Assembly (NCBI GenBank): GCA_031409275.1
Contig: JANNXA010000014.1
Coordinates: 192,001-256,000, forward strand
Direction of reading: 5' to 3'
From: Planctomycetota bacterium
Lineage (GTDB): Bacteria; Planctomycetota; B15-G4; SIAN01
DNA length: 64,000 bases
Part shown: piece by piece, positions 28,264-49,882 of the stretch
Position numbering within the stretch: position 1 is the stretch's first letter
Layout of the letters: each line of letters starts with the position of its first letter
Position numbers and translations under genes: made by a program
Notes under the pieces: generated by a model
What the model was told of the DNA's origin: nothing
What the model saw: only the letters and a program-made list of their open reading frames with translations
Database searches by the model: none

Positions 28264-30402
28264 TCAGCGCGGCCCCTTCAGCGCCGCAGGAACCATCCGT
28301 AGCCCCGGCTCGTCGATCTCCGCTTCGATCACCGGACGCACCTGCGCGTCGATCGCAGCGGCACCCGGCAACTCGTCAGCGACGGCCACCGCGGCGAACC
28401 AGTGCATGGCGTAGGTGATCCAGCTGGCGGCCGGCACCGGTGGCGGCGTGAATCCGCCGCGCGGGCGCCACGTCTCGGGTCCGAGGCCGGCGCTGCCGTC
28501 GACCCCGTTCGGCAGCGACGGCTGCTTGCCCGGGTCGAACTGATGGTCGAGGTTCACTCGCAGCCACCACGCGCACTCGGCGAAGCTGCCGATGAAGCGG
28601 CGGCTGTCCGCGACCTGCTTCCACTCGCCGCGCTCGAGGGTCGGAACGAAGGTCGAGACCGGGAACGAATAGGAGAGTGCGGTGGCGCCGTTCTCCCAGC
28701 GGACGGTGGTTCCATCCGGGGCGCGCCACGTCTCGCCGACGCTCGCGTACGCACGCGCGAAGTACTCCGCCTGCCACTCCCACAAGAAGCGCGCATCGGC
28801 GTTGCCGAGCAGTCGATCGGTCCACCAGCAGGAGGTCGCAACCCAGGTCGCCTGCCACGGACTCCAGAACGTGGCGCAGACCCACGTCTTGCGGCCGCTC
28901 GACTGGAAACCGCCGCTCCCCCACGTATGCAGCGGGGCGGGCGACTGCTCGATCGTGGCGCGCAGCTCGGCGAGGTTGTCGGTCACCCGCTTCCGGAAGT
29001 AGCCCTTCAACGGATGGGCGTCGGGCAGCAACTGCGCCGCGAGCATCGTCGTGCGCAGCGACCACGCGAAGTCGCGCGAGCCGGGATAGCGATAGCGGCC
29101 GTCATGCGGCCAGTCGTAGAAGCAGTAGGCCGCCAGCGCGGCGAACTCCTCCTCCGCGAAGCGCTCTCCGGTCAGCAAGAACGAGAGCGCGCCGAGCAGC
29201 GGCGAATGCGAGCGATCGGCCGTCTGCGGGCACTTGCGCTTGGTGGCGCGCTTCTCCAGCGCCTTGGCGGCGCCGAACTCGACGCCCATGGTCCCGTCGC
29301 GTCCGCGCACATGGATCGGAAACGAGGCGGCACCGTTCCAGTCTGCGGCGCGCAACAGGTCGTCGGCCACGACGCTCTTCGAGTTGAGCGCGAGCGCGCC
29401 CCATGACGGGATCGGCCCGATGTCGCCGCGATCACCGGTCGAAGGCATGTAGCGCGCGATCGGACCGGGATCGAGCGGGATGCCGACCTCGTAGCGCTTC
29501 GCATCCAACGATCCGTTCTGATCGCCGTCGATCAGTCGCCGCGCCAGCTCGTCGGCGCGTGCCGGCGCCAGCGGATGGCGCGCGTCGTACGGCGGGATCC
29601 ACCCGTGCAGCGTCAGGTAGGCCAGGTCTTCGCGTACGCGCACGTTCGGTGGCTCGCCACCGACGTGGCGGCGCACCGCGAAGCGCGTCCGATCCCAGAC
29701 GATGCCATCGCGCAGATCGGCCAGCACCTCATCGCCCGCGATCACCACGAGGCGCGCGAACTCGACGTCATCCGGCGGCGGCGCGCCGCTACCGCCGAGC
29801 GCGGTGTTCTCCAACACGACCTCGACGCGCGCCCCTTCGATGCCGGCGAGCTGCCGCCACCGGACACGCACCGAGAGGCGCGGCAGCTCGCCCTCCGGAC
29901 TGCGCAGCGTGGCCACCTGCTCGAGTTCGCGCGCGAGCGGCCCGTCGACCGGTCCGCGCGCGTTCGCCCGCTCCGGTGCCGGCGCTTCCACGATCGCGGT
30001 GAAGCGCGCTCCATCGCGCGCCAGCAGTTCGACGGCGACGGGCGGCGCCGGCCCGCGCTCGAGGAATGGCTCCTGGCGCGGCGGCGCGGGCGACGGCACC
30101 AGCCACACCTCGCGCGTCGCATTCGGCGCGAGGTCGAGCGGCAAGGTCACCAGCGCGTGCTGCAGCGAGCCGTCGCGGTGGCGCGAGAGCAGATCGACCT
30201 GCGCAGCGACCACCGCCGGCTTGCCGTCGGCGCTGCCATCGCGCACCACGACGCACAGTTCGCCATCGTGGAAACGGCCAGGCGCGAGCAGCGCCGACAA
30301 CGTCACCGGCAACGCCTTCGCGCCGCGACCGGATCGATCGGAGACCTCGAAGCGCACCTCGTCGCCAAAGAGCGCGGCGCACAGCAGCAGCAGGGCATGC
30401 AT
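28264..30402 (-). CDS. Secreted hypothetical protein with N-terminal beta-sandwich and putative (alpha/alpha)6 barrel (possibly polysaccharide lyase/YetA-like)
   Basis: Short signal peptide; motifs HRDGSLQHA, MPSTGDRGDIGPIPSW, DRSHSP...FLLTGERFAEEE and RDFAWSLR. TGATG coupling to the upstream gene. Confidence 0.6.
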   Translation of the reverse strand: MHALLLLCAALFGDEVRFEVSDRSGRGAKALPVTLSALLAPGRFHDGELCVVVRDGSADGKPAVVAAQVDLLSRHRDGSLQHALVTLPLDLAPNATREVWLVPSPAPPRQEPFLERGPAPPVAVELLARDGARFTAIVEAPAPERANARGPVDGPLARELEQVATLRSPEGELPRLSVRVRWRQLAGIEGARVEVVLENTALGGSGAPPPDDVEFARLVVIAGDEVLADLRDGIVWDRTRFAVRRHVGGEPPNVRVREDLAYLTLHGWIPPYDARHPLAPARADELARRLIDGDQNGSLDAKRYEVGIPLDPGPIARYMPSTGDRGDIGPIPSWGALALNSKSVVADDLLRAADWNGAASFPIHVRGRDGTMGVEFGAAKALEKRATKRKCPQTADRSHSPLLGALSFLLTGERFAEEEFAALAAYCFYDWPHDGRYRYPGSRDFAWSLRTTMLAAQLLPDAHPLKGYFRKRVTDNLAELRATIEQSPAPLHTWGSGGFQSSGRKTWVCATFWSPWQATWVATSCWWTDRLLGNADARFLWEWQAEYFARAYASVGETWRAPDGTTVRWENGATALSYSFPVSTFVPTLERGEWKQVADSRRFIGSFAECAWWLRVNLDHQFDPGKQPSLPNGVDGSAGLGPETWRPRGGFTPPPVPAASWITYAMHWFAAVAVADELPGAAAIDAQVRPVIEAEIDEPGLRMVPAALKGPR

Positions 30403-31589
30403 CAGCGTTGGAACGACGGCAGGTAGCCGAACGGAACGGCGAGCGTCAGCGCCGCCATCGCGGTGGCGTAGACCTCACCGAACAGCTCGTCGGAGAAGAC
30501 TCCGTCCTTGGACTCGCGCTCGGCTGCGTTCACCAGCGCCGGGTACCAGCCACGGAAGTGACGCAGATCCTGGTACTGCCAGTAGGCCTGCGTGGCGTAG
30601 AAGCGCCCGTACCAGGGCCACTGTTCCGGCTCGGAGCCGAAGCGCACCAGCGGGTCCTTCTGGCGCATGTACTCGATCCCGAGATCGACGAACTTGCTGT
30701 CGTAGTCGCCCACCGCGTTCAGCGACGAGACCGCCGCGGCAGTGAGCGCGAACGACGTCAGGTTGTCGTTCAGCATGTAGCGGAAGCCGCCGAACCGCGG
30801 ATCCTCGGGCTGCCGCACCTGGGAGTCGCGCAGGTACTTGACCGCCTGCGCAATCACGCCGGCATCGACGCGCATCCCCGCTTCCTTCGCCGAACGCAGC
30901 GCCTGCAACACGGTGACGGTGACCGACCCTTCGTGAAAATTCTCCGGCTCGAGGCGGTAGCCCCAGCCGCCGGTCGAGTGCTGCGCCAGCTCGATCGCGT
31001 GGACGGCGCCCTGCAGCGTCTTGCGCAGCCGATCGCGCTGATCGACGTTGTCCGCGCCCATCGACATTCCATCCGCCATCGCGACCGCCCAGGTGGCGTA
31101 ACCATGGCCGTGCATCTGCGACGTGGCGAAGCCTGGATCATTGAACTTGGCGACGACGTGCGGGCCGACGACGCGCGTGCAGGTGCACTCCTGCACCGTC
31201 GCTTGCGCCAGCAGCCAGTTCAGCAGCGCGCGCAGCCGCGCCCCGTGGCCATCCTCGCCCTCTTCCGCGGTGTGGCCTCCCGCCATGAAAGCGAGGATCG
31301 CCAACGAGGTTGCCGCCACCGTCGGTTGCTGCGAGGAGCGCGTCATCTCCAGCGCACCGTTGCTGCGCACTCGCGCCGCCAGCCACGTCAGCGCTCGATC
31401 GACGAGGCGGCGCGCCTGCATCAGGTCGCGCGCTTCGCTCGGCTCGCTGGCAGCGAAGGGGTGGTCATCGCCGCCGCCGCGAACCACCGCGCCGGCGCGC
31501 GCGTTCGCTGCCGCCGCGATGGTCGCAGCGATCACCGCCACCACCGCCGCTGCGCCAGCTCCTGCTGCTCGCGCCATGCTCCGCTTCAT
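30402..31589 (-). CDS. Secreted prenyltransferase/squalene-oxidase-repeat protein
   Basis: Signal peptide; QW-like repeats AQHSTGGWGY and GGFRY; MHGHGYAT; YGRFYATQAYWQ; C-terminal YLPSFQR. Confidence 0.85.
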   Translation of the reverse strand: MKRSMARAAGAGAAAVVAVIAATIAAAANARAGAVVRGGGDDHPFAASEPSEARDLMQARRLVDRALTWLAARVRSNGALEMTRSSQQPTVAATSLAILAFMAGGHTAEEGEDGHGARLRALLNWLLAQATVQECTCTRVVGPHVVAKFNDPGFATSQMHGHGYATWAVAMADGMSMGADNVDQRDRLRKTLQGAVHAIELAQHSTGGWGYRLEPENFHEGSVTVTVLQALRSAKEAGMRVDAGVIAQAVKYLRDSQVRQPEDPRFGGFRYMLNDNLTSFALTAAAVSSLNAVGDYDSKFVDLGIEYMRQKDPLVRFGSEPEQWPWYGRFYATQAYWQYQDLRHFRGWYPALVNAAERESKDGVFSDELFGEVYATAMAALTLAVPFGYLPSFQR

Positions 31590-48870: not shown

Positions 48871-49882
48871 CGGCGAGGGCTTCGCTCTTGGTGGGGTCGA
48901 CACTGGCCAGGATGCGGTCGACGAGGTCGTCGGAAGTGATCCCCTCCGCCTCGGCGGCGAAGTTGAGGAGCACGCGATGGCGAAGCACCGGCTTCGCCAC
49001 CCAGCGGATGTCGTCGAGCTCGACGCCCGGACGCCCTTGCAGCGCCGCGCGCGCCTTCGCTCCCAACACGAGGTACTGCGTCGCGCGCGGCCCGGCGCCC
49101 CACGCGACCGTCTCCTTCAGGAAGCCAGGAGCGTCCTTCTCGGTGCCGCGCGTCCAGCGCGCGAGCTTCATCGCGAACTTGATCAGGTGGTCGGAGATCG
49201 GCACGCGCCGCACCAGCTCCTGCAGCGAGAGGATCTCCTGCTGGCTCACCACCGGCTTCAGATCGACCTGCACGCCGGCCGTCGTGCGCCGCACGATCTC
49301 GAGCTCTTCGGCCTCGGTCGGGTAGCCGATCTTCACGTTGAACATGAAGCGGTCGAGCTGCGCTTCGGGCAGCGGATAGGTGCCCTCCTGCTCGATCGGG
49401 TTCTGCGTGGCGAAGACGAAGAAGGGCCGCTGCAGCTCGTAGCGCTTGCCACCCACCGTGACCTGGAACTCCTGCATCGACTCGAGCAACGCCGCCTGCG
49501 TCTTCGGCGGCGTACGGTTGATTTCGTCGGCAAGGATGACGTTCGCGAAGATCGGCCCGCGAATGAACGAGAGCTCGCGCTGGCCGGTCGACACGTTCTG
49601 CTGCAGGACTTCGGTGCCGGTGATGTCGGCCGGCATCATGTCGGGCGTGAACTGCACGCGGTTGAACGACAGACCGATCGTCTTCGAGAGACTCGAGATC
49701 AGCAGCGTCTTGGCGAGGCCCGGCACGCCGGTCACGATGCAGTGACCGCGCGCGAAGAGCGCGATCAGCAGCTGATCCTTGACGTCGTCCTGGCCGACGA
49801 TGACCTTGCCGAGCTCGTCCTTGATGCGTCGATAGGCCGCCCCGAGCTGCTGCAGCAGGGCGGTGTCGGAAGCCGTCTCCAT
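48839..49882 (-). CDS. moxR: MoxR-family AAA+ ATPase
   Basis: GVPGLAKT Walker A, RVQFTPDMMPADITG, LADEINRTPPKTQAALLE and ATQNPIEQEGTYPLPEAQLDRF. ATG at 49882. Confidence 0.97.
   Translation of the reverse strand: METASDTALLQQLGAAYRRIKDELGKVIVGQDDVKDQLLIALFARGHCIVTGVPGLAKTLLISSLSKTIGLSFNRVQFTPDMMPADITGTEVLQQNVSTGQRELSFIRGPIFANVILADEINRTPPKTQAALLESMQEFQVTVGGKRYELQRPFFVFATQNPIEQEGTYPLPEAQLDRFMFNVKIGYPTEAEELEIVRRTTAGVQVDLKPVVSQQEILSLQELVRRVPISDHLIKFAMKLARWTRGTEKDAPGFLKETVAWGAGPRATQYLVLGAKARAALQGRPGVELDDIRWVAKPVLRHRVLLNFAAEAEGITSDDLVDRILASVDPTKSEALADGRLPKVLGS

Follow-up and report, generated by a model that had tools for sequence, protein, structure and literature searches.

Operons of the MoxR/DUF58/BatA kind occur in many bacterial phyla and are not known to have a named client. 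Here we analyze an enlarged member of this kind from a Planctomycetota bacterium, encoded in a stretch of 64,000 nucleotides (contig JANNXA010000014.1, positions 192,001 to 256,000) that we call the window and number from its first letter. The genome comprises 5.59 Mb and is 92.9% complete; the operon lies on the contig that we label C14. Eleven open reading frames (ORFs) on the minus strand fill positions 28264-49882, each with a single terminal stop and with a coding-like GC content at the third codon position (0.87-0.92). From gene 1 to gene 11 they encode 347, 305, 775, 806, 1524, 386, 779, 912, 244, 395 and 712 amino acids. Together with a propeller gene upstream of them, genes 1 to 10 make up a single operon of the MoxR/DUF58/BatA type that is conserved in Planctomycetota.

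The junctions between successive genes measure -32, -4, -4, -4, +2, +3, +14, -4, +61 and -1 nt, so that six overlap and the other four are gaps of 2-61 nt, exactly as an earlier note on this DNA had described. Start-stop overlaps of -4 or -1 nt account for five of the ten junctions, compared with 235 possible cases among 1072 close same-strand pairs of coding-like ORFs genome-wide; the packing is tight, not extraordinary. Five such overlaps suggest an operon and do not address stoichiometry. A promoter scan upstream of the operon returned zero sites, which equals the chance expectation. Read-through or frameshift fusion of genes 9-10 or 10-11 in the window is ruled out by junctions that are out of frame. 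The earlier note had also given each gene a label. Genes 1 to 6 reach Pfam cut-offs (AAA_3, DUF58, BatA and VWA_2, GATase1_like, PQQ_2, SQHop_cyclase_C), gene 7 matches DUF4175 and gene 10 is a paralogue of gene 6, as discussed below. The secreted barrel that the note named for gene 11 resembles a RIFT/PcRGLX-type protein and not an outer-membrane beta-barrel. In a direct scan genes 7, 9, 10 and 11 have no Pfam or NCBIfam match at E<=0.01.

The first four genes form the motor and membrane core. Gene 1 (48839-49882, minus strand like all genes of the operon) encodes a MoxR AAA+ ATPase (AAA_3, 206 bits) with Walker A at residue 52 and Walker B at residue 118; both motifs are intact in 37 of the 39 sequences from the compared loci. 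Gene 2 (47953-48870) encodes a DUF58 protein with a soluble vWA (von Willebrand factor A) domain; hydropathy analysis finds no hydrophobic segment in it. Its set of residues of the metal ion-dependent adhesion site (MIDAS) type is complete, D90, S92, S94 and D191 being invariant and T167 near-invariant in 37 sequences. The BatA-type protein of gene 3 (45629-47956), recognized by BatA and two_anch matches and by hydropathy, has a predicted layout of helices at 13-31 and 63-81, a vWA domain, an immunoglobulin-like (Ig) domain, a GATase-like domain, a second Ig domain and a C-terminal helix at 752-770, and its D106, S108, S110 and D208 are invariant in 37 sequences. Gene 4 (43212-45632) encodes a BatB-like protein with the MIDAS residues D106, S108, S110, T196 and D222, by conservation in 49 sequences. 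Genes 3 and 4 are full-length paralogues over 678 hhalign columns, and for both, a pair of membrane helices is predicted at the N-terminus and a hydrophobic helix at the C-terminus; the last helix of gene 4 stays below the hydropathy threshold and was placed by alignment. They are enlarged membrane vWA proteins of the BatA/BatB type.

How they are enlarged is suggested by a structure model of the gene 4 protein (predicted local distance difference test score, pLDDT, 87.7; predicted template modelling score 0.69). Its nearest vWA structures are Bacteroides Bat proteins, namely 4jdu (Z 19.2, root-mean-square deviation (rmsd) 2.7, 174 residues aligned) and BatB 3ibs (Z 19.0, rmsd 3.4, 177 aligned), and its GATase-like domain resembles 2gk3 (Z 23.0, rmsd 2.4, 208 aligned). 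The vWA alignments run from model residue 4 to residue 675 yet pair only about 175 residues, so the vWA fold would be completed by the C-terminal strand and helices, with an arm inserted. The gene 4 vWA fold is thus predicted to be interrupted by an Ig-GATase1-like-Ig arm at residues ~253-723, an arrangement that would place the grip of the domain beside the membrane. A plain 2TM-vWA-TM layout (TM, transmembrane helix), whose MIDAS is said to face the periplasm, is reported for Borrelia BB0173 (PMC5700661). An active class I glutamine amidotransferase can be rejected for these domains. The nucleophile cysteine, expected after the glycine-rich strand, is present in only two of the 39 sequences of gene 4 and two of the 37 of gene 3.

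A complex prediction for DUF58 with residues 1-90 of gene 3 scored 0.51, the best of three controls reaching 0.00. Among 157 solved complexes, 116 reach the mark for such scores, as do 2 of 215 mismatched pairs; only 18 of the 157, and both mismatches, reach it with a score no higher than 0.60. These counts apply only approximately here, because the prediction used our own alignments, and the prediction is graded weak. Across the runs, contact agreement was at least 96% and the pLDDT of the partner at least 67. The model hints that DUF58 contacts the cytoplasmic hairpin of gene 3, and such a contact would apply to all Bat operons.

Following the core, gene 5 (38641-43215) encodes an exported protein of 1524 amino acids built from two halves, each helical plus a PQQ-type propeller (PQQ_2, 83.8 bits). 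Upstream of moxR lies gene 0 (50657-52828, minus strand), an exported helical and beta-propeller protein that the operon limits of the earlier note had overlooked. It aligns with residues 32-748 of gene 5 over 636 columns (hhalign probability 100) and is a paralogue of the N-terminal half, and both halves of gene 5 match it. In 10 of the 11 other loci with gene 0, it sits 7-317 nt before moxR, and 907 nt before it in the eleventh; gene 0 belongs to the conserved block. Gene 5-like proteins of only ~700-830 amino acids occur in four loci. The helical repeats of gene 5 may be TPR-like below detection: a Pfam scan of the eleven proteins found none of the BatD, SH3 and TPR families at E<=0.01, components that PMC5700661 lists for Bat operons. 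Between gene 0 and moxR, on the plus strand, the window holds a small membrane-protein-like ORF (50011-50664) without a Pfam match, and a gap this wide between the two genes is seen only in the window and in one other genome (G004).

Judged by eye, genes 5, 6, 8, 9 and 10 have signal-like N-termini. The layout proposed earlier, with a cytoplasmic motor, membrane vWA proteins and periplasmic parts, fits this predicted topology. The further claim that the machine spans the envelope finds no support here: a conserved lipobox is lacking (5 of 34 gene 5-like and 3 of 24 gene 8 sequences carry one), and there is no outer-membrane protein family among the eleven proteins. Lipoprotein or twin-arginine translocation (Tat) anchoring was considered for genes 5, 6, 8 and 10 and rejected, as neither the lipobox nor the twin-arginine motif is conserved.

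Genes 6 (37478-38638) and 10 (30402-31589) encode two exported proteins with a predicted alpha/alpha toroid of the squalene-cyclase fold. They are full-length paralogues (hhalign probability 100, 321 columns, 31% identity). The gene 6 model (pLDDT 94.8) is closest to 1gsz (Z 25.9, rmsd 3.0, 283 aligned), tied with 8paj (25.6), and GH76 follows at 24.5. Class II terpene cyclases, that is squalene-hopene cyclase and the single-domain 8paj/MstE (Z 25.9 and 25.6), thus share the toroid fold and the QW-type repeats; they differ in that genes 6 and 10 lack the catalytic aspartate motif and have an export signal and a C-terminal LPxxQR. The motif is taken to be DxDD/DCTAE, with its position set by the sequence register. 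At that position all 28 gene 6 sequences read D-M/L-S-I/V-T/V/A and the 16 gene 10 sequences mostly H-E-G/N-S; anywhere in the sequence, such a pattern occurs in 1 of 28 and 2 of 16, respectively. An active class II terpene cyclase is rejected for both genes on the absence of the motif at the expected register. Both keep conserved cavity-type residues along with LPxxQR. The window genome also holds ten other toroid-like ORFs, one of which stands alone and is closely paralogous to gene 6 (39% identity).

These features bear on the idea that the toroids are lipid- or isoprenoid-binding enzymes or carriers in a machine that moves or modifies envelope lipids or lipid-linked glycans. Squalene and terpene cyclases are the best matches of the toroids in both fold and sequence, and the GATase-like, Ig and membrane-helix part of gene 4 matches 6s7t_G, a subunit of the oligosaccharyltransferase of eukaryotes (Foldseek E 3.7e-10, low template modelling score). 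Against this, the DxDD-type motif is replaced throughout the 28 gene 6 and 16 gene 10 sequences, the toroids carry export signals, and glycosidases and epimerases are nearly as close (Z 22-24.5), so that the fold says little about function. We regard a lipid-directed machine as improbable.

The three genes between the toroids are likely a DUF4175 protein in pieces. Gene 7 (35135-37474), with three membrane helices and Ig-like and helical parts, matches DUF4175 positions 164-348 in a family search (48.1 bits, cut-off 27.3) and would be the N-terminal part. Gene 8 (32382-35120), an exported coiled coil of 912 amino acids, matches positions 650-746 weakly and below the cut-off; it is the probable middle part. 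Gene 9 (31651-32385) encodes an exported helical hairpin followed by a low-complexity linker and a conserved WGxLP...Y tail. The earlier note saw in it a DUF4175 tail. Pfam detects DUF4175 in none of 16 orthologues, and the Atlas comparison yields no more than a lead of 0.77; the label gains indirect support from plasmid 1 of Gemmatirosa (locus L106). There, a single frame of 1298 codons starts with a match to the gene 7 profile (E 3.5e-57) and its last 24 residues match the gene 9 tail (pairwise E 1.3e-4). A frame with a gene 7-like start and a gene 9-like end argues for a split DUF4175 protein in genes 7-9. The match of gene 8 to the same protein is compositional, as a reversed control scores too.

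This Gemmatirosa locus, the one Gemmatimonadota record examined for the spread outside Planctomycetota, also shares the core and a gene 4-like vWA/GATase-like protein with the window. It differs in keeping DUF4175 in one frame, where the window has three genes, and in a DUF4159 gene before moxR; the toroids and propellers of the window operon are a further difference. DUF4159 has no match in the window genome. The slot before moxR holds DUF4159 in Gemmatirosa and a toroid in four of the compared loci (L098, L100, L101, G159), which hints at a possible common role for the two. Operons with the same moxR-DUF58-BatA-DUF4159-DUF4175 content reportedly occur in Rhizobium (RL3499-RL3502, cmdA-D) as well as in other Alphaproteobacteria.

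Gene 9 itself differs among relatives at its hinge. In the window, the residue is a serine, and the protein has neither a cysteine nor an internal stop and is not a selenoprotein; the genome carries selA, selB and tRNA-Sec, and a search of it found no second gene 9 copy. In many relatives, the hinge residue is a cysteine or a TGA codon. Among 150 matches listed, 29 have an internal TGA and five a TAG or TAA, one of the TGA cases proving terminal. For comparison, 20 TGA-flagged regions were chosen, and the row ratios that follow are therefore enriched for TGA. Among 60 distinct gene 9-like rows, the internal stop is TGA in 23 of 23, and in 20 of these it lies within model positions 103-110, where the helical hairpin ends. 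A test of our own design found a hairpin like the selenocysteine insertion sequence (SECIS) in 23 of 23 TGA rows. Of 37 controls without a stop, 17 passed as well, and in 30 synonymous recodings of the TGA rows 10-17 of 23 did. CU, UxxC and cysteine-only forms all occur, and one genome of the same genus carries a CU copy in tandem with a plain one within the operon. Of the genomes with a TGA-type gene 9, 27 of 28 carry selA, compared with 227 of 301 overall, counts in which kin are not independent.

With an in-frame TGA, a downstream hairpin, CU and UxxC forms and selA/selB present, these relatives resemble known prokaryotic selenoprotein families. No NCBIfam model matches ten read-through gene 9 proteins at its cut-off, and no such selenoprotein stands among the covered rows of Table 1 in PMC13188914. 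Many gene 9 relatives are thus likely an unlisted family of exported selenoproteins. The window serine and the 34 of 60 rows with neither cysteine nor TGA show the feature to be optional. Examples of TGA-bearing relatives are L143 (1609-2412, genome G001), L146, L148, L152 and L156, besides others, and the operon does not include all copies, those of L146 and L147 being located elsewhere. Four genomes from three families have selA on the strand of gene 10, 3-5 kb downstream of it (L163, L164, L165 and L166; G042, G105, G080 and G126), followed by selD in G042, a placement that may reflect shared ancestry.

The hinge invites the proposal of thiol or selenol chemistry in the periplasm, in which the cysteine/selenocysteine (Cys/Sec) hinge of gene 9 would be a reactive carrier or cross-linking arm, the toroid next to it would act on the hinge and the ATPase would reset the complex. 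Exclusive use of TGA, the hairpin in every TGA row, the CU, UxxC and cysteine-only forms, the selA excess and a thioredoxin-like gene after gene 10 in two loci all speak for it. The optional nature of the residue, absent from the window's own gene 9, speaks against it, as does the deletion of bat genes in Leptospira biflexa without an oxidative phenotype (PMC3557215). We consider this chemistry unlikely, if still worth keeping in mind.

The block as a whole is widespread. Gene 4 homologues occur in 40 of 41 relatives and in 277 of 301 genomes of the phylum (E<=1e-20), mostly as a single copy, and a profile of gene 9 finds 199 of these 301. We compared ~32 kb around gene 4 in 10 of 40 order-level genomes and in 20 of the 150 best-listed phylum matches. 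Genes 1 to 10 keep the same order in all ten order-level loci, which come from four families. At the phylum level, genes 1 to 8 are in order in 14 of 20 loci and genes 1 to 10 in 9; four of the others have genes 1 to 8 plus one of genes 9 and 10, and one has genes 1 to 8 at a contig end. A further locus is reordered with nine genes, another has genes 1 to 6, and the remaining four lack the distal genes alongside, three having genes 1 to 4 only and one gene 4 alone; all four genomes have strong gene 6 homologues elsewhere. The gene profiles used here were built from the compared loci themselves; phmmer with the window proteins alone gave the same order and missed some gene 9 copies. One block holds the full parts list, near-universal in Planctomycetota.

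The expectation that the downstream genes co-occur with the moxR core is borne out for genes 5 to 10 and fails for gene 11, found in 8 of 41 relatives. Linkage is not obligatory, since unrelated insertions of 2-17 kb lie inside the operon in relatives, between genes 4/5 or 6/7, in addition to the four loci with genes 1 to 4 only or gene 4 alone. For the same reasons, the overlaps do not imply the one stoichiometric unit that had been read from them. The recurrent insertions bring a CLC channel, C25 peptidases (up to three) and an extracytoplasmic function (ECF) sigma factor with a partner gene, at L040:37-2010, L046:1306-3552, L041:14042-19806, L065:12177-13958 and L088:6764-8568.

Could the genes then be two or three co-regulated and physically separate modules, such as a motor with the membrane vWA core, the DUF4175 parts and the periplasmic accessories? 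The insertions and splits after gene 4 point that way, and so do the toroid and propeller found before moxR in L098, L100, L101 and G159 and the Gemmatirosa locus, where DUF4159 and a DUF4175-type gene in fused form are present and neither a toroid nor a propeller is matched. Nevertheless, the same gene set stays together despite reordering, and in one genome (G017) genes 5 to 10 resume in order after an insertion of ~17 kb. Separate modules therefore seem to us rather unlikely. Elsewhere, a plasmid of a cultured planctomycete (L105, NZ_CP011276.1, 551-13523) combines the core, with DUF58 in pieces, with gene 7-, 8- and 9-like genes and an NPCBM gene. The window genome itself has three further moxR-DUF58-vWA loci; the coordinates of these and of toroid loci are C22:187047-192958, C55:154093-157894, C55:383466-390550 and C23:14608-15846.

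We tentatively read the operon as an ATP-driven chaperone that would capture and release envelope proteins, with gene 11 as a passenger, a reading that we hold to be a real possibility though short of probable. The MoxR ring would use DUF58 to work on the cytoplasmic hairpin of gene 3, the BatA-type protein, and movement of the hairpin would switch the periplasmic MIDAS grip of the gene 3/gene 4 pair. The stalk, likely a split DUF4175, would position or hold the client together with the propeller and both toroids. By analogy with NorQD and CbbQO we infer a hexamer, a single vWA adaptor and MIDAS binding of the client. For NorQD, PMC9976466 describes a MoxR hexamer that binds one vWA partner, with the MIDAS needed for the target and not for the ATPase. 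NorQD, CbbQO and RavA-ViaA, like the window operon, pair a MoxR ATPase with a soluble vWA protein that has MIDAS residues; they act on a named cytoplasm-facing enzyme, whereas the apparent partner here is a membrane complex with periplasmic parts. In its mode of action the operon would resemble MoxR-vWA remodellers, with a membrane complex as its target. In Rhizobium, mutation of related operons causes defects of the envelope and of cell shape, according to PMC5700661.

Several observations weigh against the capture-and-release chaperone. Gene 3 is without a conserved MIDAS threonine. The many invariant polar and aromatic residues of the toroids are unexplained by a pure scaffold role, and the Cys/Sec hinge of gene 9 by a chaperone. 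The insertions and the four loci without distal genes count here as well; the loci were taken from long contigs among the top matches to gene 4, a bias that favours conservation, and kin genomes are not independent in the conservation counts. In L. biflexa, deletion of all bat genes left growth, shape and oxidative tolerance unchanged (PMC3557215).

Genetic data from a tractable planctomycete bear on the motor. In TraDIS (transposon-directed insertion-site sequencing) data for Planctopirus limnophila, Plim_1689 (COG0714, MoxR) and Plim_1690 (COG1721) have insertion indices of 0.004 and 0.012 and are both essential, whereas their neighbours Plim_1684-1688 and 1691-1693 are non-essential with indices of 0.06-0.11; Plim_3634 is a second essential MoxR gene (PMC10632474). 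Plim_1689-1690 is an adjacent pair of MoxR and DUF58 type; if the pair is orthologous to genes 1 and 2, the motor could be tested directly in this organism. Similarly, the toroids with their conserved cavities and the labellable Cys/Sec hinge offer testable handles. A bolder version sees a trans-inner-membrane machine, powered by ATP and spread through the phylum, whose cytoplasmic AAA+ ring drives integrin-like periplasmic vWA arms, with a tethered Cys/Sec arm of an unlisted selenoprotein family and two repurposed cyclase-fold enzymes that modify or cross-link envelope proteins covalently, possibly as an essential system of planctomycetes. We give it a low probability; if true, AAA+-driven vWA arms would be a new route for energizing periplasmic work.

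A MoxR-vWA conflict system for defence, of the ternary type with a beta-propeller, was also considered. At 39.7 bits, gene 1 scores above the Pfam cut-off of bpMoxR, and such systems are present in planctomycetes according to PMC7159879, which also describes their requirement for a propeller-vWA fusion and, often, a P-loop of the form GXXXTAKS. Neither is found here, the operon is near-universal and stable and not patchy in its spread, and no relative of it was confirmed in viral contigs. With its defining motifs absent, this type is largely refuted, and we find a defence role highly implausible.

Returning to known operons, those of the Bat (Bacteroides aerotolerance) type in Bacteroidota and spirochaetes share moxR, DUF58, the BatA N-terminal double helix and two membrane vWA proteins with the window, and include the nearest vWA structures (4jdu, 3ibs). 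In contrast to them, the window vWA proteins have an inserted arm of ~470 residues, and DUF4175 parts, propellers and toroids are added. The operon is an expanded variant of the MoxR/DUF58/BatA/DUF4175 operons, and neither a canonical Bat operon, a cyclase pathway nor a propeller conflict system. The earlier suggestion of an undescribed system holds in part: it is an enlargement of a known kind rather than an unrelated system, and the extended form was not found in the literature searched, with most subscription journals and bioRxiv supplements outside reach. It is not described in the covered parts of PMC7159879, PMC12657314, PMC7481262, PMC4807772, PMC12204202, PMC12419801 and PMC12283558, and none of five terms looked for occurs in the supplements on the V. 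spinosum essential genome.

Gene 11 (28264-30402) encodes an exported protein that resembles the RIFT-barrel/PcRGLX type, and it is probably outside the core. Apart from the window genome, six of its eight carriers belong to two genera of the same family. Its language-model features have an Atlas score of 0.96 to clusters in which 15-46% of the members carry PcRGLX_1st; it has no Pfam match, no PDB sequence match and no similarity to gene 6. The outer-membrane barrel was rejected on these RIFT/PcRGLX-like features, the missing Pfam and PDB support and the patchy spread. Gene 11 is likely a recent passenger limited to its lineage. In relatives, the slot after gene 10 holds no conserved gene among 30 proteins scanned, which include CNNM/CBS (3), thioredoxin-like (2) and DUF4760 (2) proteins and singles.

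Downstream, the operon is closed by a convergent gene on the plus strand (27143-28260), by eye a putative AIR synthetase (purM). Beyond it, three tandem minus-strand ORFs of ~1050-1110 amino acids occupy 17049-26912. Two of them have similar glycine-rich N-termini and weak Big_5 matches below the cut-off, the third has none, and the three are a possible surface-protein array.

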